The position numbers and the translations under genes were made by a program. Positions 29,266-54,895 of a DNA stretch of 64,000 nt are shown in pieces. The DNA is taken from IMG/VR virus record IMGVR_UViG_3300035214_000144, positions 5,309 to 69,308 of that record. One strand, given 5' to 3'. The notes under the pieces are model-generated. The model was given only the letters and a program-made list of their open reading frames with translations, was not told the DNA's origin and searched no databases. Numbering within the stretch: the stretch's first letter is position 1; every line of letters begins with the position of its first letter. The stretch comes from a virus. Lineage: Duplodnaviria > Caudoviricetes.

Positions 29266-30144
29266 ATGTCTACTGGGGTTCTTTTTTACGTACATAATAA
29301 TCGTCATATTGATTATGGAAAAATAGCTTTAGCCAATAGCTGTTTAATCAAAAAACATATGAAGAACAATTCTGTAACTATTGTTACAGATACTGGTACA
29401 ATCAACTGGCTGTATAAAGCATTTGACAAAGATTTTGTTGATAGCAAAATAGATAATATTATAGTTGCTAAAAGAAATAATACACGAAATATAAGAAGAT
29501 TTTACGATACTCGATATTCTAAACAAGTTGAAACATTTTATAATATTGATAGATTTAATTCTTATAACTATTCCCCATATGATGAAACATTAATATTAGA
29601 TGTCGATTATATGATTTGTAATAATCAATTTGATATGTGTTGGGAATTAGATTATGATATACAAATTAATAAAGATTCAAAAGATATTTTATCAACAAGA
29701 CATTATGACGAGTTTAAAAGAATAGGTGAACAATCAATTGATTTCTATTGGGCTACCGCAGTATTTTTTAGAAAAACTAAAGAAGCAGAAATACTATTTA
29801 ATCTAGTTAATCACGTACAACAAAATTATCAATATTATAAATTACTTTATGGTTTTGAAGCACCAACATTTCGTAATGATTTTGCATTTAGTATAGCTAT
29901 ACATCTTTTAAATGGAATGGGAAATAATAATTTTATTAAACCATTACCAGTTCCATTTTTACAACACTCACACGGCTTTGATGATTTTGTTGACGTGAAT
30001 GGAACTAAATTTAAATTTTTATTAGAAAAACCAAACAACCCTGGAGATTACTTACTATGTTCAACTGAAGATACAAACGTACATATTATGAATAAATTTG
30101 CATTAAACAGATTGTCAGACAAGATTATTAAGGAGAACAAATAA
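29266..30144 (+). CDS. GT-A fold glycosyltransferase-like protein (GT8-like)
   Basis: SPYDETLILDVDY (DxD), YWATAVFFRK, FRNDFAFSIAIH; paralog of 32215. Confidence 0.7.
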   Translation: MSTGVLFYVHNNRHIDYGKIALANSCLIKKHMKNNSVTIVTDTGTINWLYKAFDKDFVDSKIDNIIVAKRNNTRNIRRFYDTRYSKQVETFYNIDRFNSYNYSPYDETLILDVDYMICNNQFDMCWELDYDIQINKDSKDILSTRHYDEFKRIGEQSIDFYWATAVFFRKTKEAEILFNLVNHVQQNYQYYKLLYGFEAPTFRNDFAFSIAIHLLNGMGNNNFIKPLPVPFLQHSHGFDDFVDVNGTKFKFLLEKPNNPGDYLLCSTEDTNVHIMNKFALNRLSDKIIKENK

Positions 30145-30326
30145 TGTTTAGTATTAGTAGTCACCAAACATATCTTTTTCCGTGTATTGGTATATGTAGC
30201 ATTGACAAAGAAAGTGGTTATTGTATGGGATGTAGCCGTACTGAAGAAGAAGTATACAAATGGGAAGATAAAAATACTTCTGATAAATGGAAAAAAAACT
30301 TATTAGAAGAATTAAAAACAAGATGA
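30144..30326 (+). CDS. DUF1289-family small Cys-rich (putative Fe-S) protein
   Basis: PCIGICSID..SGYCMGCSRT.EE...W. Confidence 0.85.
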   Translation: MFSISSHQTYLFPCIGICSIDKESGYCMGCSRTEEEVYKWEDKNTSDKWKKNLLEELKTR

Positions 30327-30592
30327 ACATAGAGGAAATTCGAGAAATATTAAAAGATATAAAATGGAGTACGTGGGTAGTTCCATTTGAATTAATTAAA
30401 CCATATATTATATTATTATTATGTGTATTATTTGTTTTTCCGTTGATTATAGGTTTACGATTTTCATTACTTGGATATGCTATGAATTATTTTTGGTTTG
30501 ATTATATGTTTTTTATGTGGTATAAAGCAAAAGTAGTTAAACAAATAGAATGGGAAAGACGACAAAAGCGAAAAGAATTTAGAGATGATTAG
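30323..30592 (+). CDS. Membrane hypothetical protein (start probably 30323, ATGA overlap)
   Basis: Hydrophobic core [16 protein letters not shown]; ATG overlaps the DUF1289 stop. Confidence 0.55.
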
Positions 30593-31550
30593 TAATTTAA
30601 AAATGTACGATAAAGTTTCAAGAGTTATTCCTGAAGTAGAATGGCAATTCCACGAACCTTATATTTCTAGTATTAATAGATTAAAGAAACAAAAGAATGC
30701 AATTATTCTTGCTCACAATTATCAAACACCAGAAATATATCATTGTGTTGCAGACATAGTTGGAGACTCTTTAAAGTTAGCTATAGAATCAAAAAAAGCT
30801 AAAGCAAATACTATTATAATGTGTGGTGTAACTTTTATGGCCGAAACAGCCAAGTTAATGAGTCCTAACAAAACTGTTTTAATACCAGATGCAAGAGCTG
30901 GTTGTTCATTATCAGAATCAATTACAGGTAGAGATGTACGTTTATTAAAACAAAAATATCCAGGTGTACCAGTAGTAACTTATGTAAACACATCTGCTGA
31001 TGTTAAAGCAGAAACAGATATATGTTGCACATCAGGTAACGCAGTAGAAATTATAGAATCATTAGGTGTTGATAAAGTTATTTTTCTTCCAGATGAATAC
31101 CTTGCAAAAAATGTTGCCGCACAAACAAAAGTAAAAATTATTTCGTGGCACGGAAAATGTATGGTTCACGAAAGATTTACAGCACAAGAGATTAGAGAAT
31201 ATAGAGAAAACAATCCAGGTATAACTATTTTAGCTCATCCAGAATGTCCACCAGAAGTTATTGCTGAAGTAGATTTTACAGGATCAACATCTAAGATGAG
31301 TAATTATGTTAAAGAAAAACAACCTGCAAAAGTTCTTATGGTTACAGAATGTTCTATGAGTGATAATGTATCAATTGAGAACCCTGATGTAGAATTTGTT
31401 AGACCTTGTAATTTGTGTCCACATATGAAAAAAATAACTTTACCAAGTATATTACGATCATTAATGTTGAATATTCACGAAGTAAAAATAGGTCATAACA
31501 TAATGACAAAAGCAAAACGTCCTATAGAAAGAATGATATATGGAATATAA
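30585..31550 (+). CDS. nadA: Quinolinate synthase A
   Basis: ILAHNYQ, GDSL, three cluster Cys in MCGVTFMAE / CMVHERF / [23 protein letters not shown]. Confidence 0.95.
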
Positions 31551-32214
31551 ACAACAAATGGACGATATGATTAACGTTATTAATCAACACGCCACAAGTT
31601 ATGCAGGAGGCAAAAAAATTAGTCGTAGAGTTGAGTATGCATTAGAGCAAACACCTAGACATAAGTTTGTTGAAAATTTAGTAGGAATGATAGATCCAAT
31701 AGATCCATATGAAGATAATCCGATTCAAATTGGTTATGAGCAAACAATTTCACAACCTTTTATTGTAGCATATATGACAGAGATGTTAGAGATACAACCA
31801 TTGCATAAAGTATTAGAAATTGGTATGGGGTCTGGTTATCAGGCGGCCGTGCTATCTGAATTAGCAGAGGAAATTTATACAGTTGAAAGAATTCCAGAGT
31901 TGGCACAAAGAACAAAACAATTATTTGAAACATTAAAAGATTATGAAAGTATTAAAGTAAAAGTCGGTAATGGAGTTGAAGGCTGGAAAGAACACGCACC
32001 ATATGATAGAATTATTGTAACAGCAATGGCTAATGCGATGCCAAATGAATTAGCAAAGCAATTAGTAGATGGTGGAAAAATGATTGTACCTATTGAAGGT
32101 AAGTTATTATTAATAACAAAGAAAAAAGAAATTGCTGGTGTACCAGTTTTAGAACAAAAAAATTTAATAGGAGTAAGGTTTGTACCATTAATAGACAATG
32201 ATAGTAACAAATAA
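31540..32214 (+). CDS. pcm: Protein-L-isoaspartate O-methyltransferase
   Basis: [45 protein letters not shown]. Confidence 0.93.
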
Positions 32215-33066
32215 ATGAAAAAAGGTTATCTAGTAATAGCACAAAATAGTAATTACGATTATGTTCGTATGGCATACGCACTAGCTTTGAGTATTACTAA
32301 CACACAAAAATCTGTTAGGCGTATTAGTATTGCAGTTGATAAAAACACTATCGTTCCAGACAAGTACAAAACTGTATTTGATGAAATAATAAAAATTCCA
32401 TTTACTGATGATGCTGAATTGGCTGACTGGAAAATTAATAATAAATGGAAATACTATTATATGACACCATATGATCATACAGTTATATTAGATACTGATA
32501 TGTTATTTTTAAGTGATATTGGGCATTGGTGGGAATATTTTACAAGCAGAGCAATGACATCAACTTGTAAAATTAAAACTTATAGAAATGAACTAGCTAA
32601 CAATAGTCCCAATAGACAAACTTTTTTAGCAAATAAACTACCTAACATATATACAGCATTTTTTCATTTTAATAAAAATAGTGATTTAACTGAAGAATAT
32701 TTTAAATTAATTCAACATATTTTTAGAAACTATGATACATTTAAAGAAGACTTCTTAGTTCCACCAAGACAAACCTTTTTAAGTGCTGATGTAGTATATG
32801 CTTTGGCTGGAAAATTGTTAGGTATTGAAGATGAAATGTGCAACAAACATTTAGAATATCCTACATTTACACATATGAAATCTAATGTGCAAGGCTGGGG
32901 ACCAGGATATTCTAAACATTGGACTAAACATATTGGTGCATATTTTTCAAAAAACTGTGAATTAAAAATAGGTAATTATATACAAAAGCTACCATTTCAT
33001 TATCAAGATAAAAAATTTTTAACCGATGAAATAATAGTAAAATTAGAAAAGAAGATTGGGTTATGA
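32215..33066 (+). CDS. GT-A fold glycosyltransferase-like protein (GT8-like)
   Basis: TPYDHTVILDTDM (DxD), LPNIYTAFFHF, PTFTHMK; paralog of 29266. Confidence 0.7.
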   Translation: MKKGYLVIAQNSNYDYVRMAYALALSITNTQKSVRRISIAVDKNTIVPDKYKTVFDEIIKIPFTDDAELADWKINNKWKYYYMTPYDHTVILDTDMLFLSDIGHWWEYFTSRAMTSTCKIKTYRNELANNSPNRQTFLANKLPNIYTAFFHFNKNSDLTEEYFKLIQHIFRNYDTFKEDFLVPPRQTFLSADVVYALAGKLLGIEDEMCNKHLEYPTFTHMKSNVQGWGPGYSKHWTKHIGAYFSKNCELKIGNYIQKLPFHYQDKKFLTDEIIVKLEKKIGL

Positions 33067-33659
33067 TAAAAGAAAAAAGATATGTTTTGTTTGATTTAGA
33101 AACACGTGATATAAAAGGTATAATGCGTAATCAACCTGCATTATCAGAAACATATTTTGAAATTGACTATCCTGATGTTGAAGATTTTATAACAAATACT
33201 AAAAATGTTGTAAATTATTACATAGATAAAGATATAAAACAAAGTAAATACTCAATAAAATTAAAGAAAACTGATATATCTGTAAAGTTAATAGATGATC
33301 GATTATTCAAAATACCTAAAGCTGAAAGCGGTGATGTAATGATTGAAAACAATACAAAAGAACAAAAAATGGTTATTAAGTTTGAAGAGGCATTTAGGTC
33401 TTACTTATTAAAAAAATATAAGATAAACAAAGAAACAAAAATTAAAAACATTAATGTAGAAGGTCAACAATTTTTAGATTTTATTTTGTGTTATGATGCT
33501 GACCCGCATAATTTAATACATTATGCACGTATTCCAGTTTTATATTTGTTAATGAATAATAAAGCAGATGTTTTGTATAAGACAGAACATACAAATCATT
33601 GCGTCTATACAAAAAGAATATACGACGACTATTGCTATAAGGAAATAGAGTATGAGTAA
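33063..33659 (+). CDS. Hypothetical protein
   Basis: 198-aa ORF coupled to both neighbours. Confidence 0.7.
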   Translation: MIKEKRYVLFDLETRDIKGIMRNQPALSETYFEIDYPDVEDFITNTKNVVNYYIDKDIKQSKYSIKLKKTDISVKLIDDRLFKIPKAESGDVMIENNTKEQKMVIKFEEAFRSYLLKKYKINKETKIKNINVEGQQFLDFILCYDADPHNLIHYARIPVLYLLMNNKADVLYKTEHTNHCVYTKRIYDDYCYKEIEYE

Positions 33660-34653
33660 AATAATTGACGTAACTGATATTGATATCTTTTATATTAGTT
33701 TCGACGAACCAAATATGGAAGAGAATTGGGCAGATTTAAAAACAAAATGCCCGTGGGCAAAAAGAACACACGGAATATTAGGATCGGATGCCGCTCATAA
33801 AGAGTGTGCCAAAAATGCTGAAACTGATAGATTTATTTCTGTTGATGGAGACAATATTGTTGATCCACAGTTCTTTGATCAAGTAATTGACTTTAGACAA
33901 GCAGATGTTAAATTAGAAACTTCTGTGATTAGTTGGTGCGGAAAAAATTCTATAAATGGATTAATATATGGTAATGGTGGATTAAAATGTTGGCCAGTTC
34001 AATATGTATTAGATATGAAAACACACGAAGCCGCCGTTGATGAAAGATCAAAAGTAGATTTTTGTTGGGACTTAAATTATATACAAATGAATGATGCATA
34101 TAGTTTAGTAATGAACAACGATACACCTTATCAGGCATACAGAGCAGGATTTAGAGAAGGTGTTAAAATGAGTTTGGATAGAGGATTAAAAGTCGACCCA
34201 GATAATTTTGAAGCAAGTATACACGATAAAAACTTTCATAGATTATTAACTTGGTGCAATATAGGTAGAGATGTTACTAATGGATTATGGGCTATGTATG
34301 GAGCAAGACTAGGTTGCTACTTAACTAATTTAGATTCAACATTTGACTTTGTTAATGTACGAGATTTTGAATGGCATACAAAATACTTTAATGAAGAAAT
34401 AATGCCAAAATTCGAAGGGGAAGATGAATATTGTATTAAATCTAAATATCATTGGAACTACGAAAAATTACTTAAAGAAACATTATATTTAGGTGACCAG
34501 TTACGTAAAAAATTAAATATTCCAGTTGCAGAATTAGATGCAGAAGGTTCTACGTTCTTTAAAAAAGTATATTGGAACCCTCCGAGAATGGGTAACCTGG
34601 TTACTGAAAAAGACTCTGAAGGAAGGATAACTTATAAAACAATCAATGGCTAA
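33652..34653 (+). CDS. Glycosyltransferase-like protein (GT-A, DxD)
   Basis: DIFYISFDEPN...HGILGSDAAHK...FISVDGDN...GNGGLKCWP...AYRAGFREGVKM. Confidence 0.6.
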   Translation: MSKIIDVTDIDIFYISFDEPNMEENWADLKTKCPWAKRTHGILGSDAAHKECAKNAETDRFISVDGDNIVDPQFFDQVIDFRQADVKLETSVISWCGKNSINGLIYGNGGLKCWPVQYVLDMKTHEAAVDERSKVDFCWDLNYIQMNDAYSLVMNNDTPYQAYRAGFREGVKMSLDRGLKVDPDNFEASIHDKNFHRLLTWCNIGRDVTNGLWAMYGARLGCYLTNLDSTFDFVNVRDFEWHTKYFNEEIMPKFEGEDEYCIKSKYHWNYEKLLKETLYLGDQLRKKLNIPVAELDAEGSTFFKKVYWNPPRMGNLVTEKDSEGRITYKTING

Positions 34654-34789
34654 TATTATTTTTTATATTATATTCGTACCAATATGTATAATACTTGTCT
34701 TGGCAGTAGTGCTATGGGCTTTTATTGTAACTAGTTGTTGCCAAATTTGGCATTGGATTAAATCAATTTTTAAAAAAAATGACAGATGA
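34646..34789 (+). CDS. Small membrane peptide (47 aa), not in ORF track
   Basis: MANIIFYIIFVPICIILVLAVVLWAFIVTSCCQIWHWIKSIFKKNDR fills the gap with overlaps at both ends. Confidence 0.55.
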   Translation: MANIIFYIIFVPICIILVLAVVLWAFIVTSCCQIWHWIKSIFKKNDR

Positions 34790-36164
34790 AGTTAAAAAAA
34801 TCAAGCAGACTAGAGATCAGCTTAATGCTGTATCGCCATCCTTCTGTTTAGCAAAATGGTACCAATCAACAATACATTTACAATATGGACATACACATAG
34901 TTGTCATCACCCAAGAACACACCAAGTTCCTTTAAATGAACTTAAATCAAATTCTAGTGCATTACATAATACAGAATATAAAAAATCACAAAGACAACTT
35001 ATGCTTAAAGGAGTAAGACCTCCTGAATGTCAATACTGCTGGAACGTTGAAGATTTAGGTACAGAACATTATAGTGATAGAAGTTCTAAATCACACGAAT
35101 CGTGGGCAAAACCTTTTTTAAATGAAACAGCAAAAATGGATGGCAATGAAAATGTAAATCCAACTTATGTTGAAATAAGTTTTAGTAATGTTTGTAATTT
35201 TAAATGTGCATATTGCTCTCCAGCATTTAGTAGTTCGTGGATGGAAGAAATCCAATCAGAAGGAGCATATCCTACAAGCGACAAGTTTAATAATTTGTCT
35301 TGGTTAAAACAACAAGGCAAACTACCGATTCCTCATCGTGAACATAATCCTTATGTTGACGCATTCTGGAAATGGTTCCCTGACCTGTACAAAACTCTCC
35401 AGGTTTTCAGAATTACAGGCGGGGAACCTCTATTATCTAAAGATACTTACAAAGTACTAGATTATATTAATGATAATCCTAGACCTGAACTTGAACTTGC
35501 AATTAATTCAAATGGCTGTGTACCAAATAAATTATTTGATGAATACATTGAAAAAATGAAAAGAATTACATTAGATAATAAAATTGGGGTAACAAGATTC
35601 TATACATCAATTGATACTTGGGGTGAACAAGCAGAATATATTAGAGATGGATTAGATTTTAATCAATGGTATGATAATATATGTCGTGTATTAACTGAAT
35701 TGCCAAAAACTAAAATTACAATTATGTGTACAACAGGTTTATTAAGTATGCCAAGATTACATAAACTATTAGATATAATACATCCTTTAAAGAGAGAATT
35801 CTATACAGAAGCTCGTAAAGTGCCAATAACAATTGATACAGCTATTTTAAGGCACCCTGCGTACCTTAGTGCATCAATACTACCAAAAAAATATAGTAAG
35901 CTATTAGACCCTGCTATAGCAATTATGGAAGCAAATGCTGAGTCTTATAACAACCCATATAAAGGTTTTTTTGACTTTGAACTAGCTAAATTACTACGTT
36001 TTAAGTCGTATGCAGAAGCTGACCCGAACAAATCAGAGAAAATTAACTTAAATATAACTAGAACTGACTTTATAAGTTATATTAATGAATATGACAAAAG
36101 GAGAAATAAATCATTTAAAAAAGTTTTTCCAGAATTAGAAGAATTTTATGAAAGTTGTTTATGA
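34779..36164 (+). CDS. Radical SAM enzyme with N-terminal twitch/SPASM-like region (#1)
   Basis: SFCLAKW...SCHH...PECQYCW; CNFKCAYC; GGEP. Confidence 0.9.
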   Translation: MTDEVKKIKQTRDQLNAVSPSFCLAKWYQSTIHLQYGHTHSCHHPRTHQVPLNELKSNSSALHNTEYKKSQRQLMLKGVRPPECQYCWNVEDLGTEHYSDRSSKSHESWAKPFLNETAKMDGNENVNPTYVEISFSNVCNFKCAYCSPAFSSSWMEEIQSEGAYPTSDKFNNLSWLKQQGKLPIPHREHNPYVDAFWKWFPDLYKTLQVFRITGGEPLLSKDTYKVLDYINDNPRPELELAINSNGCVPNKLFDEYIEKMKRITLDNKIGVTRFYTSIDTWGEQAEYIRDGLDFNQWYDNICRVLTELPKTKITIMCTTGLLSMPRLHKLLDIIHPLKREFYTEARKVPITIDTAILRHPAYLSASILPKKYSKLLDPAIAIMEANAESYNNPYKGFFDFELAKLLRFKSYAEADPNKSEKINLNITRTDFISYINEYDKRRNKSFKKVFPELEEFYESCL

Positions 36165-36241
36165 ACAAAATAGTATGTTGGACTATGTTTTGGATTATAA
36201 TGGCCCTGGTCGCTTTTTATTTAGGAGTATACGTATGGTAA
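36161..36241 (+). CDS. Hydrophobic micro-peptide (26 aa), not in ORF track
   Basis: MNKIVCWTMFWIIMALVAFYLGVYVW; ATGA overlap with the rSAM stop. Confidence 0.45.
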   Translation: MNKIVCWTMFWIIMALVAFYLGVYVW

Positions 36242-36549
36242 GAATTTTAGGAATTTTATCACTTTTAATATTATTGCAAAGTTGTCAAGGAACTCCTTTT
36301 GCAAGTTTGATTGGTGCAGAAACAGTTGTTGCTGGAACTAGCAGTTATTCAACATATAAAACTATTACAATAACAAAAGCTGGTATTGATACTGGACTAG
36401 CAATATCAGGAAAAAAGACAACAACAGATATGTTTATATCAAGTATTACTGGAAAAGATTGTGATGTAATCCGTTTAATAAAATATAATGAAATGAGATT
36501 TGTTTGTTTAGATATTGTTCCAGAATATGAAGCCATTGGGGAAAAATAA
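36235..36549 (+). CDS. Putative lipoprotein (start moved to MVRIL)
   Basis: AGGAG SD, signal peptide and lipobox LQSC. Confidence 0.65.
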   Translation: MVRILGILSLLILLQSCQGTPFASLIGAETVVAGTSSYSTYKTITITKAGIDTGLAISGKKTTTDMFISSITGKDCDVIRLIKYNEMRFVCLDIVPEYEAIGEK

Positions 36550-36870
36550 ATGTATAAGCCACTACCTAATGGATTAACAATAAAAGAATCCGAACACCAC
36601 GGACTTGGTTTGTTTTCTACACAGGAATTTGACAAAGAGGTTGTATTAGGTATTGCACATATTGAAAACAACAACTTTCCACACGGATATATTAGAACTG
36701 CCTTGGGTGCTTTTTACAATCATTCAGATACTCCTAATTGTATGAGCTTAAAAGGATTTTGGCATCAACTACCAGTACGTTATTTGTGTACAATAAAAAA
36801 AATTAAAGCAGGTGAAGAGTTAACAGCAAAATATACTATGTATATTGATTTTAATAAGGACGCATATTGA
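36550..36870 (+). CDS. SET-domain protein (lysine methyltransferase fold)
   Basis: IKESEHHGLGLFS, FYNHSDTPNC, IKAGEELTAKY match SET motifs GxG, NHS and ELxxxY. Confidence 0.9.
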   Translation: MYKPLPNGLTIKESEHHGLGLFSTQEFDKEVVLGIAHIENNNFPHGYIRTALGAFYNHSDTPNCMSLKGFWHQLPVRYLCTIKKIKAGEELTAKYTMYIDFNKDAY

Positions 36871-36871
36871 T

Positions 36872-37060
36872 ATGAAAATAAAAGAATTAAAACTAAAAAG
36901 CATTAACATAGGCGATGAAATACTCGTAGGTAGATTTAAGAATCGCAAAGCTACAGTTACTGGCTTTGGTGTCGACGATCATAATCAACCTGTACTAAAA
37001 ACAACCAAAGGCCCACAAAAATTATTCAAACCTAGAATAGTAAAACTGATGGACAAATGA
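36872..37060 (+). CDS. Small phage hypothetical protein
   Basis: INIGDEILVGRFKNRKATV...QPVLKT; start moved to the ATG after the SET stop. Confidence 0.7.
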   Translation: MKIKELKLKSINIGDEILVGRFKNRKATVTGFGVDDHNQPVLKTTKGPQKLFKPRIVKLMDK

Positions 37061-41236: not shown

Positions 41237-41250
41237 GATAGGACAACAAT

Positions 41251-43557: not shown

Positions 43558-43568
43558 AGAAAAATTTA

Positions 43569-45648: not shown

Positions 45649-46106
45649 TAGACTTATTGTGGGGGTCTGATCATAGAGGATTAGAATTAAAAGAATATTT
45701 AAGCGAATATGTTTGTCCTACTAAAATAGATAAAGATGGCAAATTTAATATAGCTACAATGTATGACGTAGGAACTTACACAAATAAAAAATGTAACTAT
45801 CCTGATATAGTTAAAAAGTTTCATAATCACTTTGACATCTATACACACGGCATTTTAATTTGTGGGTCTGGGTTTGGAGTATGTATGGCGGCAAATAGAT
45901 TTAAACATATTAGAGCCGCAACTTGTAGAACAGTTAAAGAAGTCGAAATAGCTCGTAAACATAATAATATAAATGTATTATGTTTAGGAGCAAACTTTAC
46001 ATCTAAGAGTAGAGCAAAAGGTCTAGTTAAAACATTTTTTCAAACTGACTTTGAAAACGGAAGACACAAGAAACGAATAAATATATTAAAGACAATAAAC
46101 AAATGA
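45630..46106 (+). CDS. rpiB: Ribose-5-phosphate isomerase B
   Basis: GSDHRG, GILICGSGFGVCMAANR, IRAA, ARKHNNINVLCLG, GRHKKR. Confidence 0.9.
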   Translation: MANSKLVDLLWGSDHRGLELKEYLSEYVCPTKIDKDGKFNIATMYDVGTYTNKKCNYPDIVKKFHNHFDIYTHGILICGSGFGVCMAANRFKHIRAATCRTVKEVEIARKHNNINVLCLGANFTSKSRAKGLVKTFFQTDFENGRHKKRINILKTINK

Positions 46107-46663
46107 ATATCGAAGAAGTAGATAAAACAGAACTGCTAAAAGGGTTTGATTATGCTAATAAAATATATTCAAATAAAGAATATAATTATACCGTGGTTCC
46201 AAAATGTGCTTCATCGATTATAATTGATACTTTAAATATGACTGAAGGTGAAAATAATAATACTAAAGAACATTTTACTTTTTTAAGACACCCATATGGA
46301 AGACTTAAAAGTTATCTATACCAAGTAAAATGCTATACCTATGGAGAAACTATACACAAAATTGAACATATATTAAATAATTTTGATAATTGGGATGAAC
46401 ATTGTATACCATATAACTTTTATATAACCTATGATGATTTTAAATTTGTTGGAACATTAGAGAATTTTGATAATGGTTTTAGAAATATCTCTAATAAAAA
46501 GATTATTAAAGAATCTAGAAGAGAAGACAATAAAGATATTGAAGCAATACACGATGCCTTAATAGAAAGAAATGCCAAAGAAATTAATAGAATATATGCT
46601 GAAGATTTTATATTATACGAAAAAGCAAAAAAATGTATTACACCAAGGATGACAAATGAATAA
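46103..46663 (+). CDS. Sulfotransferase (Sulfotransfer_2-like)
   Basis: VPKCASS (5'-PSB) and FTFLRHPYGRLKSY (3'-PB). Confidence 0.75.
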   Translation: MNIEEVDKTELLKGFDYANKIYSNKEYNYTVVPKCASSIIIDTLNMTEGENNNTKEHFTFLRHPYGRLKSYLYQVKCYTYGETIHKIEHILNNFDNWDEHCIPYNFYITYDDFKFVGTLENFDNGFRNISNKKIIKESRREDNKDIEAIHDALIERNAKEINRIYAEDFILYEKAKKCITPRMTNE

Positions 46664-47663
46664 AGAACTTCACATAGTTGATTTAGATCATACTCACGAT
46701 ATTACTGGGCAACTTAATGTCTTAGCATTTTGGATTCGCAATAATCAAGATAAAAAGGATACACACCACATAGTAATTAAAAGAGTATGGGAAGGTGAAA
46801 TACATTTTCTAATTAAAGAAAATTTCTTACCATATGTTCGCGAAGCTCTAGCAAATTGGCCTGCTAACAATGTTAGTTTAGTAATGGCTGATGTTTATTT
46901 AGAAAGAAATGTTACACAATGGTTTGCAGGGACAGGAGATACAGATTTTCCAATAAAATGTATATCAGCACCATTTGAATTACTAAAAAGAACTATCGAA
47001 AACAAGAACAATAAAGCAATTGTACAGCCTAAATTATATGAAAGAAAAGCTAAAAGATTTATTTGTTTAAATGGTGCGGCAAAAATACATAGAGCAAAAC
47101 TAGTATCCGATTTATATAATAACGGAATGGATAGTTTTGGTTATATATCTTGGATTAATAGGTATGGCAATAATGTACCTAAGCAATTTTATACAAATGA
47201 GAAATTTAAAGGAGATGAACTTAAATTAGATTTTACTGGCGAAGAGCTTGATAAAGGTAATAACCAAGAAGTATTGCCTCCGATTTATGGTTATGCAGGA
47301 TTTGAAATTGTAAACGAAAGTATTGTAAGTGATACTAGTTTGTTTTTAACAGAAAAAACGTGGAAACCAATTTTGTATAATAAAATTTTTATTGTACACG
47401 GTTGCAAAGATACAATGAAATTTTTAATAGATAATGGATTTGAACCATATACAGAGCTATATAATCACGAAGCATTTGACAACTTACCATACAAAGAAAG
47501 ATATAATGCTATGTGGATTGAGCTACAAAAACTTATGCATTGTACCGCTGAAGACTGGACAGGTATATATCAAGATGTAAATATAAAGAAAAAACTAATA
47601 CACAACACTAATATATTTAGAAATAAGATTATAACTAATTGGAAAAATGAAATAGATGCTTGA
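46656..47663 (+). CDS. GT10-like protein (#5)
   Basis: FICLNGAAKIHR; FEIVNES...FLTEKTWKPI...FIVHG...GFEPY. Confidence 0.55.
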   Translation: MNKELHIVDLDHTHDITGQLNVLAFWIRNNQDKKDTHHIVIKRVWEGEIHFLIKENFLPYVREALANWPANNVSLVMADVYLERNVTQWFAGTGDTDFPIKCISAPFELLKRTIENKNNKAIVQPKLYERKAKRFICLNGAAKIHRAKLVSDLYNNGMDSFGYISWINRYGNNVPKQFYTNEKFKGDELKLDFTGEELDKGNNQEVLPPIYGYAGFEIVNESIVSDTSLFLTEKTWKPILYNKIFIVHGCKDTMKFLIDNGFEPYTELYNHEAFDNLPYKERYNAMWIELQKLMHCTAEDWTGIYQDVNIKKKLIHNTNIFRNKIITNWKNEIDA

Positions 47664-48903
47664 TAAGAAAAAATTATTAGATACAACAAACAAAACATTT
47701 TGTATGATACCGTGGACACATTTAAGCTCGTGGCCTGATGGTCGAATACTAACTTGTTGTATGACCGATAGTGACGATGCTATGGGTAATTTAAAAGATA
47801 TGACTTTTGAAGAAGCTTGGAATTGTGAACAACAAAGACAATTAAGAAAAAATATGCTCGAAGGCAAAGCAAGTAAACTCTGTAGTCGTTGTTATGAACA
47901 AGAACGACACGGCGTAAAAAATACAAGAAATTGGGCTAATAGAAAGTTAAATCATCACTGGGATGTTGTTGAATCAACTAAAGAAGATGGAACAGTAGAT
48001 AAAGTTAATTTACCTTATATAGATTTTAGATTTAGTAACTTATGTAATTTTAGATGTAGAACGTGTGGACCAGATTTATCAAGTGGGTGGTACGATGACC
48101 ATCATAAGATGTGGCAGGGTGCTACACAGAAAAAATTTATTAGACCATATAAAGATGAAAAATCATTTTGGAAAGTAGTGGAACCTTACATTGATGATTT
48201 AGAAGAAATATACTTTGCAGGTGGTGAACCACTAATGATGGACGAACATTATAGAATTTTAAAAAGATTAGTAGAAAAGAAAATGTTCCACGTAAGATTA
48301 CAATACAATACAAACTTTAGTAATATAATATACAAAGACATTAATGTATTAGATGAATGGGACAAGTTTGAAACTGTTGAGATTGGTGCTAGTCTAGATG
48401 GCAGTTTTAAGCGAGGTGAATATCTACGTAAAGGACAAGTATGGGATCAAGTTTTAGAAAATCGAAAACAAGTTAAAGAAAGATGTCCTAGAGCTTTCTT
48501 TTTTCTTGCAACTTGCGTTAATGTGTTTAATTGTTTTCACGTATCAGATTTTCATATAGACTGGATTAAAAAAGGCTTGGTGGGACATCATAGTTTATTA
48601 AATCCTTTACAATCTCCCGAACATTTAAGAATACAAATACTGCCAACAGAGATGAAAGATAAACTTGCAGAGAAATGGAGAAAGGCACAAGCCTGGATGG
48701 TTGAAAATACTAAAGCAGATCACAGACGATACGAATCTTTAATTAGTTATTTGTATGAAACAGACCGTACTAACTTACAAGATCGATGGTATGATATCAC
48801 AAATAGACTCGATAAAATAAGAAATGAGAACTGGCGTGATATTTTTCCTGAACTGCACGAACTTGAAGATAACATAAAATTACAAGCAAAACTCAAAAAA
48901 TAG
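47656..48903 (+). CDS. Radical SAM enzyme with N-terminal twitch/SPASM-like region (#3)
   Basis: TFCMIPW...DGRILTCC...LCSRCY; CNFRCRTC; GGEP. Confidence 0.9.
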   Translation: MLDKKKLLDTTNKTFCMIPWTHLSSWPDGRILTCCMTDSDDAMGNLKDMTFEEAWNCEQQRQLRKNMLEGKASKLCSRCYEQERHGVKNTRNWANRKLNHHWDVVESTKEDGTVDKVNLPYIDFRFSNLCNFRCRTCGPDLSSGWYDDHHKMWQGATQKKFIRPYKDEKSFWKVVEPYIDDLEEIYFAGGEPLMMDEHYRILKRLVEKKMFHVRLQYNTNFSNIIYKDINVLDEWDKFETVEIGASLDGSFKRGEYLRKGQVWDQVLENRKQVKERCPRAFFFLATCVNVFNCFHVSDFHIDWIKKGLVGHHSLLNPLQSPEHLRIQILPTEMKDKLAEKWRKAQAWMVENTKADHRRYESLISYLYETDRTNLQDRWYDITNRLDKIRNENWRDIFPELHELEDNIKLQAKLKK

Positions 48904-49016
48904 AAGCTTATATCTTCGTCTACAGCGTCTTTAAGTACCAACCTGGGGTCTTAGTACCCCCGAAAATTTTTATCTCTTGACATAAATTTACAAATCTTGT
49001 AACATATTATAATATT

Positions 49017-49520
49017 ATGAAAATATTAAAAGATATTAATCCGCTTGGCGTGGTGTATGTAGTATTGGTAGTTTGTTTATTATATATTATATCACAAAAT
49101 TCAATCGAGAAAAAAGAAATGATAAGTCAACTAACTAATGCAGAAAAAGAAATTAGTTCACTAGAATCATATTCAGATGAACTAGAATTATATTCAGATG
49201 AATTAAACAGCCAGTTAGGATTATACCTAAGTACAATAAGTGAAATGAAAACCAGCGAAACAAATTTGAGAAATCAAATTACTAGTTTGGAAAACCAAAT
49301 TACTTTTTTAGAAGCACAACTTACTAGTTTAGAAAAACAAATTACTAGCTTAGAAGAAATTCCGGTAACTCTTTTAACTATAATTGATGGGTTAGAAGAA
49401 AACATACAAACTTTGAAATTCACTATACAAGATTTAGAACTAGAACTAGAACAGCTTAATAAGAAATTAAATAAATTAACTGTTGAAGCTGAAAATAATA
49501 TAGATACTAATACACAATAA
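49017..49520 (+). CDS. N-terminally membrane-anchored coiled-coil protein
   Basis: TM helix LGVVYVVLVVCLLYII followed by a long heptad pattern. Confidence 0.7.
   Translation: MKILKDINPLGVVYVVLVVCLLYIISQNSIEKKEMISQLTNAEKEISSLESYSDELELYSDELNSQLGLYLSTISEMKTSETNLRNQITSLENQITFLEAQLTSLEKQITSLEEIPVTLLTIIDGLEENIQTLKFTIQDLELELEQLNKKLNKLTVEAENNIDTNTQ
49161..49358 (+). repeat. 21-bp (heptad) coding tandem repeats
   Basis: Two units at 49161-49202 (CTAGAAT[C/T]ATATTCAGATGAA) and four units at 49275-49358 encoding QITSLEN/QITFLEA/QLTSLEK/QITSLEE. Confidence 0.85.
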
Positions 49521-49527
49521 AAAATTA

Positions 49528-49764
49528 TCAAGATTTATTCATTAGTTCTTCGTATCGTTCGTGAGCTTCCTTGGGACCAAAATAAGCTTCTTGTAATTCA
49601 ACATTCCAATATAAAAGGTTATCTATTATAATACGTTTACCTGATACAGCACAAACAACATAATGACCCATCTTAACTATATCAAAATACATAGGTTTAT
49701 ATTTTAATTCAGCTAAAACCCACTCGAGTGGATTATCTGGAATATTTGAGATTTTGTTGTTCAT
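49528..49764 (-). CDS. DUF2093-family protein
   Basis: FDIVKMGHYVVCAVSGKRI..DNLLYWNVELQEAY matches the alphaproteobacterial DUF2093 pattern. Confidence 0.8.
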   Translation of the reverse strand: MNNKISNIPDNPLEWVLAELKYKPMYFDIVKMGHYVVCAVSGKRIIIDNLLYWNVELQEAYFGPKEAHERYEELMNKS

Positions 49765-49924
49765 ACCAATTTATATAATCCTCAATATTATTATCAAAGT
49801 ATTCTGTAAAGGTATAAGATTGTATTGAAGTACAATATTCTACAATGTATTGTGGTACAAAATAATTATTTGGAATATTTATGCACCAATATATTACTTC
49901 ATAAAATATTTCTAGTTCACTCAT
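49733..49924 (-). CDS. Hypothetical protein
   Basis: 63-aa ORF between SGNH #4 and DUF2093; acidic and aromatic. Confidence 0.45.
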   Translation of the reverse strand: MSELEIFYEVIYWCINIPNNYFVPQYIVEYCTSIQSYTFTEYFDNNIEDYINWYEQQNLKYSR

Positions 49925-49927
49925 ATA

Positions 49928-50671
49928 TTATATAAGATAGGGCACTAATACTTCGGCTAATTTTTTATTTCCTTTTATATTAAAATGAAAACCCGAATCA
50001 ACAGCATATTGTTTAAAGTCAATTTCTTTTTGCACTACTACTCTATTGGATAAATCCGTTGCTGATCTTGAAAATTCATCATCTAACCAAAACAAATTTA
50101 TAATTTTTTTATTTTTATCTTTTACATAGTAATTACAAAATTCAACTGCCTCAGTATACTTTTCAAAGTTAAGTGGGTGATGTCTTTCTTGATTGTACCA
50201 ATAAGAAACACGATCAATAATTTGCTGTTTGGATAATGTACTTTTACGTTTTATTTCGTGAAATATATGTTGTACTAATTCTGATTGTTCATCAGCAATT
50301 ATTTGTTCTGCCATACCAACAGTTAGATGATAATAACTTTGTGTGTTATCCCATAGCTGTAAGTAATTCTCATATACATCGTGGTCTCTTGTTATTCTTT
50401 GATACTTCCATTGGTCGGATGTAAACTGTAATAGCCCTCTGTCAGGTGTCGTGTGCTGAATTACAAATATATCGCTGTCATATGTTTCATTAATATATTT
50501 TAATGTACTCGGATACGTAACCCAACTAGATCCGGCCCTACCAGCATTAACAACTTGATTTTTAATCTTGCATTCATTTAATTGTTCGTATACTATATAC
50601 GGATAAGTATGTGTATATGGAATATCATAACCTTGTGTCCAACTACAACCTATAAAAGAGACTTTTAACAT
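49928..50671 (-). CDS. SGNH/GDSL-hydrolase-like protein (#4)
   Basis: FIGCSWT, NAGRAGSS, DSGFHFNIKGN. Confidence 0.7.
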   Translation of the reverse strand: MLKVSFIGCSWTQGYDIPYTHTYPYIVYEQLNECKIKNQVVNAGRAGSSWVTYPSTLKYINETYDSDIFVIQHTTPDRGLLQFTSDQWKYQRITRDHDVYENYLQLWDNTQSYYHLTVGMAEQIIADEQSELVQHIFHEIKRKSTLSKQQIIDRVSYWYNQERHHPLNFEKYTEAVEFCNYYVKDKNKKIINLFWLDDEFSRSATDLSNRVVVQKEIDFKQYAVDSGFHFNIKGNKKLAEVLVPYLI

Positions 50672-51853
50672 ATGGATAATAAACTACCTAAAAATTTTTG
50701 TATTCTTCCTTGGACTGCTTTAGAAGTCCAACCAAACGGCACAGTAAAACCGTGCTGTATGTATAAGGATACACTAAAAAAGGAAAATGGTCAAGAGTAT
50801 AAAATACAAAAGGACCAATTTAATGATATTTGGAACAGTGATGAATTAGCTACAATACGTAAAAGATTTTTATCTGGCACACAACCACGTGGGTGCCATA
50901 GATGTTGGATGGAAGAATTATCAGGCAAAAACTCTAAAAGAATAAGAGATAGTAGAAAATACAAGCATCTAATTACTGAAGAAATCATATTTGGAAAGCC
51001 TGCTCCAAGGTATTTAGATTTAAAACTTGGAAATATATGCAACCTTAAATGTAGAATATGCTCTCCACAATACTCATCAAAATGGATATCAGAACAAAGA
51101 AAATATGATATTATTGACAAAAATATTAAGTACTATGAAAGATTAGATTGGGCTGAAAAGTCAGAAATATTTTGGAATAATATTGAATCTTTGATTCCTA
51201 TTTTAGAACATTTAGATTTTACAGGTGGAGAACCTTTTATGATAAAAGAACACTTTGATCTTTTACATAAGATTATAAAACAAGGTTATGCACATAAGAT
51301 TACTTTGCACTATAACACAAATGGAACACAATTGCCATTGGATGCTTTAGATAATATATTTCCTCATTTTAAATCTGTTGACGTTCATTTTAGTGTAGAT
51401 GGCATAGGCAAACACTTTGAATATCAACGACATCCAGCTAAATGGGACCAGCTATTAAAAAATTTAAATATGTGGAAAACATATGAATCCAACAAACTAG
51501 ACCTATCTATATGTCATACTGTTAATGTGTTTAATGTACTTTACTTGCCAGAATTTATCGAATGGACTGAGAACTTTGATATAAAAATATACCTTAATAC
51601 ATTACACGAACCATTACATTATAATATATCAGCACTACCTAGCTTCTTAAAAGATGTTGTAAAAGATAAACTATTAGACTATATTGAAAGAGATTTTGAT
51701 CAAATAATACAATTTATGGAAAATAGCGATAATAGTTATCAACTAAAAGAATTTAAAAGACAAATCTACAGAATGGACCTAGTAAGAGTAGAATCATTTG
51801 ATAAAACATTTCCGGAATTATCTGAGCTAATGAATATTATAAAAATAAAATGA
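50672..51853 (+). CDS. Radical SAM enzyme with N-terminal twitch/SPASM-like region (#4)
   Basis: NFCILPW...NGTVKPCC...GCHRCW; CNLKCRIC; GGEP. Confidence 0.9.
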   Translation: MDNKLPKNFCILPWTALEVQPNGTVKPCCMYKDTLKKENGQEYKIQKDQFNDIWNSDELATIRKRFLSGTQPRGCHRCWMEELSGKNSKRIRDSRKYKHLITEEIIFGKPAPRYLDLKLGNICNLKCRICSPQYSSKWISEQRKYDIIDKNIKYYERLDWAEKSEIFWNNIESLIPILEHLDFTGGEPFMIKEHFDLLHKIIKQGYAHKITLHYNTNGTQLPLDALDNIFPHFKSVDVHFSVDGIGKHFEYQRHPAKWDQLLKNLNMWKTYESNKLDLSICHTVNVFNVLYLPEFIEWTENFDIKIYLNTLHEPLHYNISALPSFLKDVVKDKLLDYIERDFDQIIQFMENSDNSYQLKEFKRQIYRMDLVRVESFDKTFPELSELMNIIKIK

Positions 51854-52671
51854 CCCTAAACAACGAACACAAAGTAGACTATGAAAAAATTGTAGCTACT
51901 GTTTTAAATGATGACAGCTATAAAGTTAAAATAGATCGGCCGGAAGGTATTAATTATACAACCACTCGAGCTAATAAATTAGAGTTCATTAAAAGTAATA
52001 GTAGCTCATTTATATACAATAATGAAACAGTTTATCAAATGGCAGTTAACGTCTTAAATATTCAAGACGGGCGTTTTGTTGATGAATGGTATTATAAAAA
52101 TAGAACAGAAGTAAAAGAAAAACATCAAATTTTTACAAAAGCACATAAAGGTACTATAAGCTTTGATTTATATCTAGCAAATAACATTTTTAATGAATCA
52201 CGTTTGTGGAAATTAATGTTAGTACAATGCAAGTATTGTACTGATGCAAATGAATTTGATAACACCCACGATCCTTATTTTAGCTTACGTATACAAAAGC
52301 CCGGCGAAACTTACGGATTGTATCTACGATGTTGGGAACCAGGTATTGATAAAGATATTATCACAACAACTAAAATATTAAAATTCAATAAAGATGATAT
52401 TAACAAACATAATGGGTATGATAAGTGGATTAAAATAAAAATAACATATACGCAAATAAATACAGCAACATACCAAATAGATGCTTATGCAACTAATGGT
52501 AGTTACGAAGGGCACCAAAGTCATATTATCAAACCACACCAATTTAATAATGCAACCTTAAAACTAGGTATAGTAAACATAGGATCAAAATACAAAAAGT
52601 TCAATGAAAAAAATGTAAGTGTATGGTATAAAAATATTAAAATAATAACAGAGGGAAATTATTATGATTAA
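51850..52671 (+). CDS. Hypothetical protein, C-terminal half possibly a beta-jelly-roll (ConA/polysaccharide-lyase-like)
   Basis: Alternating beta-strand pattern GTISFDLYL...YFSLRI...WIKIKITY...LKLGI; weak. Confidence 0.45.
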   Translation: MTLNNEHKVDYEKIVATVLNDDSYKVKIDRPEGINYTTTRANKLEFIKSNSSSFIYNNETVYQMAVNVLNIQDGRFVDEWYYKNRTEVKEKHQIFTKAHKGTISFDLYLANNIFNESRLWKLMLVQCKYCTDANEFDNTHDPYFSLRIQKPGETYGLYLRCWEPGIDKDIITTTKILKFNKDDINKHNGYDKWIKIKITYTQINTATYQIDAYATNGSYEGHQSHIIKPHQFNNATLKLGIVNIGSKYKKFNEKNVSVWYKNIKIITEGNYYD

Positions 52672-52950: not shown

Positions 52951-53001
52951 TGTATACCTATTTATATCTTGGTATAAGTATTATATAGATTGAGAGCAGA
53001 A

Positions 53002-53391: not shown

Positions 53392-53429
53392 AAAAATTTA
53401 GCCGGTTGAGCTTGAAATTTTAGCAAAAT

Positions 53430-53437
53430 TATAAATA
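53430..53437 (+). promoter_or_regulatory. T4-type late promoter
   Basis: Exact TATAAATA upstream of the 53476-54895 unit. Confidence 0.6.
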
Positions 53438-53475
53438 TCAAAGAACTACTAATTTAAGACATTTTCAAGGAACCG

Positions 53476-53694
53476 ATGAAGAACTACTGGCTAAAATTAC
53501 TAGCACTAATGAGGTGTGACTTTAAAAAACGTACAGGACACGATTGGGGCTATGATAATCACCACCATAAACTATGGGGTTATGACGCCGGACATCATTA
53601 TTTAGGCTATCAACAAAGTAAACGTTGTAAGGCACAGCAAACTAAAGAGAGAGATAATGGCAAGACAGGACAAGACACACAAGGGCAGACGTAA
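53476..53694 (+). CDS. His/Trp/Tyr-rich small protein with WGYD repeats
   Basis: HDWGYDNHHH-KLWGYDAGHH-YLGYQ; AAGGA SD. Confidence 0.6.
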   Translation: MKNYWLKLLALMRCDFKKRTGHDWGYDNHHHKLWGYDAGHHYLGYQQSKRCKAQQTKERDNGKTGQDTQGQT

Positions 53695-53749
53695 AAAAGG
53701 TAGTAAAAAAAGAAGAGCTCAAAGAAAAATTAGACACAAAAAAAGATAA
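53657..53749 (+). CDS. Protamine-like basic peptide (30 aa), not in ORF track
   Basis: MARQDKTHKGRRKKGSKKRRAQRKIRHKKR, 17/30 Lys+Arg; purine-rich SD-like AGAGAGAG. Confidence 0.55.
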   Translation: MARQDKTHKGRRKKGSKKRRAQRKIRHKKR

Positions 53750-53824
53750 TTAGTTAACTTTTAAACCTAATTGTTGAAGTCTAAATACAATAAATACAGC
53801 TATAATAATAAAAAAGGTGTACAA

Positions 53825-54895
53825 ATGAAAGCTAATTCTTGGACAGAGTTCCAACCATTAAAAGAAGTTATACTAGGTAAAGGTTATACAACAGACTGGT
53901 TAACAAAAGAGCAATTTCCCGAAGTTGATTTACGTGCTGGGCTAAAACAAATATTCGAAGAGACTGAAGAAGACGTTTTAAAAGTCAAAGACTTTTTAGA
54001 AAGTGCTGGTGTTAATGTATTAAGACCAGAAATAACATTTGACTTAAACAAAAAGTATGGCCAAATTGATTTAAGCAAATTTAAATTTCAATTCCCAAAT
54101 CATCCACTTCAACCAAGAGATACTGCTGGTGTTTATGGAGATACGTTAGTTCATTTTTATACAGGTGAGAATGGTCGTATTTTTGAAAACTGGGGTACTT
54201 ATAATCATTTTATAGAATATTATAAGCAAGGTAATAATTGGATTTCAATGCCTATGCCTAACTTTGCTAGTCCAACACAAGGATATAAAGAACACGATGA
54301 TAAAAGAATATTGTATCATTCAGCAAATATATTAAGATGTGGTAAAGATATTTTTTATTCTACTGTACATCCAACACGTGGTCATCATAAAGGCAAAGGT
54401 TCTAACTTAGGTATGGAATGGTTGCAAAGAGCATTTGGTGACAAGTTTAGATATCATATTGTTAATGTAGGTGGCCACCTTGATGGTAAGTTAGCATTAC
54501 TTAGACCGGGGCTTCTTGCTTGTTGGGACAAAGAAGATATTCCAGAAGTTTTAAAAAGTTGGGACGTAATTGAAGTGCCTGAGACTGCGTGGAACGTACC
54601 TAAGCATTTTACAAGAACTCGTAAGCAAAGATGGTATGAAGAATTTGTTAAGGAATATCTAACAGAATGGATTGGCTATTGTGATGAAACAGTATTTGAT
54701 GTTAACTGTTTTAGTGTAAATGAAAATTTAGTAATTACTAACGGCTACCATAAAGAAACATACGATAAATTTAAAGCTCACGGAATAGAAGCTTGGCCGT
54801 GGCATTGGCGACACAAACATTTCTGGGACGGTGGAATACATTGTTTAACAATGGATACTATAAGAGAAGGTAATCAAGAAGATTACTTTAGTTAA
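53825..54895 (+). CDS. Amidinotransferase (pentein superfamily; glycine/inosamine-phosphate amidinotransferase-like)
   Basis: NSWTEFQPLKEVILG, PRDT, HLDGKLALLRPG, FWDGGIHCLTMD (Asp/His/Cys triad); start moved to MKANS. Confidence 0.88.
   Translation: MKANSWTEFQPLKEVILGKGYTTDWLTKEQFPEVDLRAGLKQIFEETEEDVLKVKDFLESAGVNVLRPEITFDLNKKYGQIDLSKFKFQFPNHPLQPRDTAGVYGDTLVHFYTGENGRIFENWGTYNHFIEYYKQGNNWISMPMPNFASPTQGYKEHDDKRILYHSANILRCGKDIFYSTVHPTRGHHKGKGSNLGMEWLQRAFGDKFRYHIVNVGGHLDGKLALLRPGLLACWDKEDIPEVLKSWDVIEVPETAWNVPKHFTRTRKQRWYEEFVKEYLTEWIGYCDETVFDVNCFSVNENLVITNGYHKETYDKFKAHGIEAWPWHWRHKHFWDGGIHCLTMDTIREGNQEDYFS

Follow-up and report, generated by a model that had tools for sequence, protein, structure and literature searches.

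Genes at the locus

The window analysed here is a 64-kb stretch (GC content about 30%) out of a 69.3-kb viral contig, IMG/VR record IMGVR_UViG_3300035214_000144. Our subject is the block of predicted glycosyltransferase (GT), SGNH, radical S-adenosylmethionine (radical SAM) and further tailoring genes at positions 29266-54895. The block lies on the tail-gene strand and begins 5 nucleotides (nt) after the tail genes. An earlier reading of the bare letters (the original prediction) saw in it a glycan assembly line of mostly coupled genes, and most neighbours do overlap, by 1-19 nt.

Upstream of the block, PHROG matches mark a virion structural protein, a baseplate hub and a baseplate wedge protein of 1152 amino acids, the last being 35-41% identical to counterparts in the jumbo myophages Salicola SCTP-2, Pseudomonas PA5oct and Agrobacterium Atu_ph07. 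A giant open reading frame (ORF) of 4153 amino acids (11165-23626, plus strand) has a CBM_5_12 module as its sole Pfam match, and several Ser/Thr/Gly-rich, fibre-like ORFs follow, up to 29260, the fibre genes among them lying at 23635-28834. Two relatives in IMG/VR serve for comparison: G001 (IMGVR_UViG_3300020477_001008, 242 kb, about 55% complete), which is the closest one, and G002 (IMGVR_UViG_3300020477_000990, 328 kb, complete, with terminal repeats). Ten IMG/VR contigs that carry the block (L001-L010, with L001 lying in G001) were found using a closer GT10-like alignment, A3. Because the wedge protein is jumbo-like and the IMG/VR relatives reach 242 and 328 kb, we take the window to be a fragment of a marine jumbo myophage genome.

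GT-B and SGNH paralogs

Five proteins of the block share a C-terminal domain with an invariant Arg, a Glu and a Glu-Lys (TEK), joined to N-terminal halves that are unrelated to each other:

39285-40478, plus strand: GT10-like GT-B paralog 1; R, E and the TEK E-K conserved in alignments A1 and A2; own clade of orthologs, from 10 genomes
41691-42614, plus strand: GT10-like GT-B paralog 2, from BLASTP and the family alignment; ortholog clade of 10 rows
42607-43557, plus strand: GT10-like GT-B paralog 3, derived from the 39285 lineage by a later duplication; its C-terminal domain is 36% identical to that of 39285
44317-45648, plus strand: GT10-like GT-B paralog 4, modelled with AlphaFold (model confidence, pLDDT, 89); aligned by VIA-align to 2nzx and 1qkj
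46656-47663, plus strand: GT10-like GT-B paralog 5, from BLASTP and the family alignment; ortholog clade of 10 rows

Across 37 sequences, R227, E338 and K339 are invariant and E323 is nearly so; these residues may correspond to the conserved Arg and the TEK-ending donor-binding motif of GT10. The model of 44317, built with 37 homologs, has a GT-B fold. Its best VIA-align match is the Helicobacter pylori alpha1,3-fucosyltransferase 2nzx (Z 13.0, root-mean-square deviation 5.2, 279 residues aligned), and it also matches 8d0w at Z 10.4 and T4 alpha-glucosyltransferase at a Z of about 10. The top Foldseek match is T4 beta-glucosyltransferase. None of the five paralogs matches a Pfam family, Glyco_transf_10 (PF00852) included, even at E 10, and on the model we class them as GT10-like by fold, not as GT10 members by sequence. 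The 49 homolog clusters are all metagenomic (e.g., Tara), and 48 of them carry no Pfam family, the exception being HAD-type only. A tblastn search of isolated phages with a GT10-like protein gave no match, nor did a megablast search with the island.

In a maximum-likelihood tree of all 49 sequences (quick search), four of the paralogs fall into separate clades (SH-aLRT 97-100), each holding one sequence per genome over the 11 genomes; they are therefore old and individually retained. The fifth clade (42607) is younger: it split off from the 39285 lineage by duplication in the window's subgroup and is restricted to the window and L001-L005. One-per-genome retention is what would be looked for in non-redundant steps rather than in a cassette that changes rapidly.

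Interleaved with these genes are those of the SGNH family, whose fourth member is divergently transcribed:

38567-39295, plus strand: SGNH paralog 1; BLASTP to 40472 at E 3e-19; in alignment A6
40472-41236, plus strand: SGNH paralog 2, modelled with AlphaFold2 (pLDDT 88); Foldseek matches TesA, PatB and GDSL esterases
43569-44327, plus strand: SGNH paralog 3, from BLASTP and alignment A6
49928-50671, minus strand: SGNH paralog 4, head to head with the radical SAM gene 50672; weak Lipase_GDSL match; in A6

The first three match one another by BLASTP at E 1e-11 to 1e-19, and the fourth is joined to them through the family hidden Markov model (HMM) and its orthologs. For the 40472 model, built with 40 sequences, the top Foldseek matches are all SGNH proteins (TesA 5tic at E 2e-5, PatB, EstA, and GDSL and acetylxylan esterases). 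G8, S10 and H231 are invariant in the 40 sequences of A6, giving the block I Gly-x-Ser nucleophile and the block V His. The block II Gly, block III Asn and block V Asp are not invariant in A6; an Arg (R78) is invariant instead. Pfam scores fall below the cut-offs (Lipase_GDSL 17.8, DUF6071 24.3). The two models thus bear out the GT-B and SGNH fold calls of the original prediction.

The fourth SGNH gene (49928-50671, minus strand) and a radical SAM gene (50672-51853, plus strand) start back to back with zero intergenic bases. L001, L003 and L005 keep this divergent pair, and in L002 and L004 the two genes are turned round together; no inverted repeats were found flanking the pair.

DxD proteins and radical SAM enzymes

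Three proteins near the start of the block carry a DxD motif:

29266-30144, plus strand: GT-A candidate 1, glycogenin (GT8)-like DxD protein; profile A8 to glycogenin-1 at E 0.026
32215-33066, plus strand: GT-A candidate 2, glycogenin (GT8)-like DxD protein; profile A7 to glycogenin-1 at E 0.008; phrog_1903 match
33652-34653, plus strand: DxD protein, possibly a GT2-like glycosyltransferase (a weakly supported call); invariant D65 and D67 (A9); Atlas lead

The first two are distant paralogs (hhalign of A8 against A7, 99.7%). In 29266, which has 636 representative homologs, D112 and D114 are invariant across 38 sequences; in 32215, D93 and D95 are invariant. Glycogenin is the best PDB match of both profiles, at marginal E-values and over about 100 residues spanning the DxD. 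The third protein is 47% identical to an ORF of Ralstonia phage RsoM2USA, and its nearest Atlas clusters are viral “Glycosyltransferase 2-like” (score 0.99). Against the PDB, its single sequence gave no match and profile A9 gave only spurious BamA matches. Its invariant DxD and the Atlas lead are the evidence for the GT-A label, and they support it weakly. Three GT-A proteins had been predicted here, of which the first two are candidates with a marginal likeness to glycogenin and the third is the weaker case.

Five radical SAM paralogs are found in the window, the last lying beyond the block as originally delimited:

34779-36164, plus strand: radical SAM 1; NF033640 350.8 bits; CX3CX2C at residue 139; N-terminal twitch domain
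37057-38580, plus strand: radical SAM 2; NF033640 296.5 bits; 36% identical to 34779; N-terminal twitch domain
47656-48903, plus strand: radical SAM 3; NF033640 398.6 bits; Pfam SPASM (16-80) before Radical_SAM (126-279)
50672-51853, plus strand: radical SAM 4; NF033640 390.0 bits; N-terminal twitch domain
57891-59159, minus strand: radical SAM 5; NF033640 168.0 bits, just below the cut-off; CX3CX2C at residue 131

All-against-all BLASTP links them at E 1e-14 to 1e-85. NF033640 is the NCBIfam model N_Twi_rSAM (twitch domain-containing radical SAM protein), with a curated cut-off of 170 bits. The CX3CX2C motif is intact in all five, at residues 123-142, with a CxxC before it. In 47656 and 50672, Pfam places SPASM (residues 10-80) N-terminal to Radical_SAM (119-279), and 47656 has no PDB match at E 0.01. 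The paralog families of the original prediction (five GT10-like, four SGNH-like, and four radical SAM plus one nearby) were all recovered, using BLASTP, the family HMM and NF033640 scores.

The family is expanded in the relatives: G001 has about 17 copies above the cut-off and G002 has about 14, frequently arranged in tandem. In G002, the ortholog of the amidinotransferase lies within one such array, and in a second one a GT10-like gene is paired with a radical SAM gene. The arrays (G001 198-220 kb; G002 74-97 and 289-297 kb) are interleaved with ORFs of 200-500 amino acids that have no assigned function.

More widely, over 5000 metagenomic proteins match NF033640 at E 1e-10 or better. The family also occurs, again often in tandem, in cellular genomes of Bdellovibrionota, Bacteroidota, Myxococcota and Elusimicrobia, and none of the 76 cellular loci examined contains the GT10-like, SGNH-like or DxD families. 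A literature search found no paper on the function of the family. In one Elusimicrobia metagenome-assembled genome (MJ-2014_bin-0981), NF033640 copies occur on each of at least 14 short contigs (L017-L034, L063), which reflects either an expansion in the cellular genome or misbinned phage contigs.

Tailoring enzymes

Four more genes encode candidates for modifying sugars or their products:

41251-41691, plus strand: GNAT-fold protein, like the C-terminal part of malonyl-CoA decarboxylase; PF05292 35.5 bits (cut-off 23.2); orthologs in L001, L002 and G002
45630-46106, plus strand: RpiB/LacAB-family sugar-phosphate isomerase; PF02502 136.8 bits; found only in L001, L002 and L004 among the relatives
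46103-46663, plus strand: sulfotransferase-like protein (weakly supported); PKCASS and RHPYGRLKS motifs by eye; Atlas lead
53771-54895, plus strand: amidinotransferase of the StrB1/AGAT type; phmmer to PDB 1bwd at E 1e-20; C-terminal GGIHC

These scores agree with the predicted GNAT-like, RpiB and amidinotransferase genes. The amidinotransferase has no Pfam family at E 0.01; in the phmmer search of the PDB, 1bwd (StrB1) aligns over query residues 37-372 and is followed by SxtG, HsvA and AGAT. The protein is 96% identical to its ortholog in G001 (L001 17104), with neighbouring proteins at 73-87%, which points to unusually strong constraint or recent exchange.

The sulfotransferase call for 46103 is less secure: 12 of its 30 nearest Atlas clusters carry PF03567, it has no Pfam match and no meaningful PDB match, and what survives of the call is the motifs and the Atlas lead. 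Among the GT10-like genes of sub-module B in G002 (described below) stands a 148-amino-acid ORF resembling adenosine phosphosulfate (APS) kinase (G002:C1:152499-152753, minus strand; 36 bits, cut-off 21.1, with partial coverage of the model). It has no counterpart in the window, and it would fit the need for a sulfate donor.

Conservation of the block

A survey of related contigs, proposed with the original prediction, found the block syntenic in ten IMG/VR contigs, with protein identities of 25-87%, and it is therefore not a chance assembly. The order kept is radical SAM, SGNH, GT, SGNH, GT, GT, SGNH, GT, (RpiB), GT, radical SAM and the head-to-head SGNH/radical SAM pair.

Two sub-modules can be distinguished. 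Sub-module A (28913-38580) comprises the three DxD proteins, two conserved proteins of no known function and radical SAMs. In the window, in both G001 and G002, and in RsoM2USA, a soil phage in culture, it comes directly after the genes for the giant protein and the fibres. The RsoM2USA genes of sub-module A (ORFs 349-354; 34-47% identity) are all annotated as hypothetical. The RsoM2USA counterpart of the window's giant ORF is ORF361, a protein of more than 288 kDa that was detected in virions by mass spectrometry (PMC8504454). In G002, sub-module B (37057-51853) stands inverted on the opposite side of the baseplate genes. When the proteins of the window are compared with those of G002, identity is 35-72% for the island and 34-62% for structural proteins. 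The island thus diverges about as fast as the structural genes, which is more in keeping with a fixed virion trait than with a cassette of rapid turnover.

A proposed cytoplasmic glycan pathway for virion proteins

The conserved, tightly packed and non-redundant transferase paralogs are most economically read as a multi-step pathway that builds and tailors a sugar. Our tentative reading, held at somewhat less than even confidence, is that this pathway is expressed late, works in the cytoplasm, and glycosylates and tailors virion tail proteins; a host surface glycan is the main rival target.

Built on the folds, catalytic motifs, paralogy, synteny, orthology and enzyme solubility reported here, the pathway would run as follows, with every chemical step, the step order, the donors and the acceptor being what we infer. 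The acceptor would be made inside the infected cell and would most likely be a virion tail, fibre or giant structural protein. Nucleotide sugars supplied by the host would serve three GT-A-type and four to five GT10-like GT-B enzymes, each attaching a single sugar. O-acyl groups may be added or removed by the SGNH paralogs, whose genes are interleaved with those of the GT-B enzymes, with the GNAT-like enzyme supplying or transferring acyl groups. The sulfotransferase-like protein would sulfate the product and the StrB1-like amidinotransferase would amidinate it. Finally, the N-terminal-twitch radical SAMs could act on C-H bonds of the sugars, for example by oxidation, epimerisation, dehydration or C-methylation.

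A hydrophobic-segment scan found no membrane-like segment in any island enzyme, and family scans of the window proteins found no flippase, polymerase, initiating transferase or exporter. Autonomous polysaccharide export is therefore disfavoured. A virion protein acceptor is favoured by the constant adjacency to tail genes across very different hosts, the shared strand, the 5-nt gap, the soluble enzymes and the divergence rate of structural genes. There is also a precedent for the acceptor, since capsid and tail-tube proteins of mycobacteriophages are glycosylated by phage-encoded glycosyltransferases (Freeman et al. 2023, cited in PMC12619734).

Several observations weigh against this reading. 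Neither the window nor the complete G002 contains a sugar-activating nucleotidyltransferase, and G002 has one clear epimerase-family gene plus a marginal second match, so the donors would have to come from the host. The protein-L-isoaspartate O-methyltransferase (PCMT) and SET proteins encoded in the block act on proteins, not sugars. On the 44317 model, T4 beta-glucosyltransferase (1qkj, Z 11.7) nearly ties with GT10, within about 1.3 Z, and the ranking is not decisive. The fibre proteins have a Ser/Thr content of 0.19-0.25 compared with 0.14 window-wide, an enrichment that is not above the usual fibre level and does not discriminate. Promoter and terminator counts are at or below the shuffled expectation and are uninformative on expression. 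The 110 neighbours of cellular NF033640 genes point to sugar chemistry only weakly, with a Pfam tally of three GT2, two carbamoyltransferase, two DegT, two epimerase and two GDSL. Lastly, the authors who described comparable islands in pelagimyophages proposed modification of the host O-chain against superinfection (PMC7029224).

In its boldest form, which we consider doubtful, the proposal is that in this lineage of marine and soil jumbo phages the tail fibres or the giant structural protein are coated with an acylated, sulfated, amidinated and radical SAM-edited oligosaccharide, that NF033640 is a new class of glycan-modifying radical enzymes, and that this would be the first phage virion glycan from the phage's own eight-transferase pathway. 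If a virion glycan pathway of this kind is real, these phages spend at least 25 kb, and 14-17 radical SAM genes per genome in the relatives, on one of the most elaborate viral glycan pathways. It would give NF033640, a large catalogued family, its first function, and it would reveal the way in which abundant marine phages change the surface of their particles or of their hosts, with effects on adsorption, host range, stability and grazing. Since the cultured RsoM2USA carries sub-module A, part of the question is open to bench work.

Other genes in and around the block

The remaining genes are these:

28913-29260, plus strand: conserved ORF of 115 amino acids, always before sub-module A; same position in G001 (86%), G002 (44%) and RsoM2USA (34%)
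30287-30592, plus strand: small membrane protein of 101 amino acids; hydrophobic segment at residues 29-66; no family match
30585-31550, plus strand: quinolinate synthase NadA; PF02445 368 bits; absent from this position in G001
31540-32214, plus strand: PCMT; PF01135 176 bits; absent from this position in G001
33063-33659, plus strand: conserved sub-module A protein of 198 amino acids; orthologs in G001 and G002, and a size-matched ORF at the RsoM2USA position; no family match
36148-36549, plus strand: small protein; hydrophobic segment at the N-terminus, lipobox-like LLQSC; 53% identical ortholog in G001
36550-36870, plus strand: minimal SET-domain protein of 106 amino acids; PF00856 36.4 bits; orthologs in L001 (85%) and L006 (68%)
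49017-49520, plus strand: membrane-anchored coiled-coil protein; hydrophobic segment at residues 3-31; Pfam matches only coiled-coil
51850-52671, plus strand: protein of 273 amino acids overlapping the stop codon of radical SAM 50672; no family match; no ortholog in L001-L010

For most island proteins, PHROGs holds no family. NadA, PCMT and SET, all inside the block, had been overlooked in the original gene list. The assembly-line idea accordingly needs trimming: a multi-step sugar pathway is still the most economical account, and the block as a whole is not purely glycan-related, holding as it does these three genes and the small membrane proteins. NadA is probably not part of a glycan pathway, and being absent from their position in G001, NadA and PCMT look like an insertion or accessory genes. 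The lipobox-like protein and the SET protein are neighbours between two radical SAM genes, a pair retained in G001.

Just past the block lies the gene for an NAD synthase, NadE (55413-56210, minus strand; 164 bits). NadA (368 bits) and NadE are thus both phage-encoded, which suggests a phage-driven NAD supply. Just upstream of the window are gp46 (SbcC)-like and gp47 (Mre11)-like ORFs (G000:C1:322-3110, minus strand) with P-loop and DIHFG motifs.

Alternative explanations

During infection, the enzymes may instead work on the cytoplasmic side of the membrane and remodel precursors of host envelope glycans, such as units of the lipopolysaccharide (LPS) O-chain or of the capsule, which would change the cell surface and block superinfection by competing phages. 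This is the published interpretation for GT-rich islands beside pelagimyophage tail fibres, in which GT8 is the commonest family (PMC7029224). SGNH domains O-acetylate surface glycans, and PatB is among the Foldseek matches of the 40472 model. The GT8 and GT10 families, moreover, include LPS glycosyltransferases. Such remodelling sits poorly with enzymes that all lack a membrane segment, with the lack of a flippase or Gtr-type machinery, and with a phage that looks lytic and jumbo and carries these genes among its late structural genes. The island is also conserved and orthologous rather than hypervariable, and its persistence in phages of marine hosts and of Ralstonia would be odd for host-specific O-antigen editing. 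We consider this unlikely.

Less probable still is that the block has no single product, being a mixture of auxiliary genes accumulated in a permissive region behind the tail genes. NadA, PCMT, SET and the nearby NadE are unrelated to glycans; the first two are missing from their position in G001; the RpiB, GNAT-like and sulfotransferase-like genes are present in only some relatives; and sub-modules A and B are separable in G002. Against it stands the SGNH/GT10-like/radical SAM core, whose order and one-to-one orthology are kept across 11 genomes and whose genes overlap, as expected of one operon with one job.

Distinctly improbable, in our view, is a soluble sugar-containing small molecule (aminocyclitol- or aminoglycoside-like, or a modified nucleotide sugar) that is used in the cell or released at lysis. 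Among solved structures, the amidinotransferase is nearest to StrB1, an enzyme of streptomycin biosynthesis, and then to SxtG, and all enzymes are soluble. Twitch-type radical SAMs, GT-B enzymes, an acyltransferase and a sugar-phosphate isomerase are typical of such pathways (BtrN, StrB1). On the other hand, family scans of the window found no cyclitol synthase, aminotransferase or exporter, the constant tail-gene adjacency would be left unexplained, and we know of no phage that makes such a small molecule.

A role in DNA hypermodification, in which the transferases would place a tailored glycan on phage DNA as protection from restriction, is very improbable: T4 beta-glucosyltransferase is the top Foldseek match and a near tie in VIA-align (Z 11.7 vs 13.0), and radical SAM enzymes occur in some thymidine hypermodification pathways, but eight transferases with acyl, sulfo and amidino tailoring far exceed any known DNA glycan, and G000, G001 and the complete G002 contain no ThyA-family, TET/JBP or C5 cytosine methylase protein above cut-off. 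The absence of the usual hypermodification routes, noted for the window in the original prediction, thus extends to a complete 328-kb genome, with the TET/JBP negative being weak because its control gave no signal anywhere. A weak thymidylate-synthase match was rejected, as it falls in the gp46/SbcC-like ATPase.

Comparison with known systems

The original prediction knew of no characterised precedent for such a combination of genes. Islands of this kind have nevertheless been described in phages, without biochemistry, and the syntenic jumbo-phage form seen here differs from them. In pelagimyophages and cyanomyophages, a “host recognition cluster” with radical SAM cassettes and numerous glycosyltransferases forms a large island by the tail fibres (Zaragoza-Solas et al. 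2020, PMC7029224). Shared features are the position in the structural region beside the tail fibres, the glycosyltransferases, the radical SAM genes and the lack of biochemical data. The cluster, however, is hypervariable and non-syntenic and belongs to T4-like phages of 150-200 kb, whereas the window's island is syntenic, has one-to-one orthologs in 11 genomes and belongs to a jumbo phage with a PA5oct/SCTP-2-type baseplate. The window's island is also built on an alternation of GT10-like and SGNH genes, which is not mentioned for the cluster in the passages of that paper examined.

A T4-like marine genome with 12 radical SAM genes has been reported as well (Nishimura et al., PMC5332604). Moraphages have four core glycosyltransferase groups, and radical SAM is never mentioned for them (PMC12619734). 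Our literature search on N-terminal twitch/SPASM radical SAMs, or on radical SAM with glycosyltransferase genes in jumbo phages, found nothing relevant. Mycobacteriophage virion glycosylation likewise uses soluble phage glycosyltransferases encoded near structural genes, with the difference that the glycan is demonstrated there and inferred here. Those systems have one to a few transferases and are without radical SAM, SGNH, sulfo- or amidino-tailoring (PMC12619734).

At the level of single families, the GT10-like paralogs resemble CAZy GT10 (H. pylori FucT, human FUT9) in the GT-B fold and, it may be, in the invariant Arg and an acidic residue separated by a short spacer from TEK. They differ in that the structural alignments are at 10-12% identity and that the paralogs' N-terminal domains are mutually unrelated. 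The amidinotransferase shares with StrB1 (1bwd) full-length similarity and the C-terminal catalytic-Cys motif GGIHC, but it stands in a phage context in which no cyclitol pathway was found. The window's radical SAMs share with NF033640 an N-terminal Cys-rich twitch/SPASM region followed by CX3CX2C, and four of the five score above the cut-off (296-399 bits). What sets these phages apart is that the family is expanded to about 14-17 copies per genome and coupled to phage-specific GT10-like and SGNH families.

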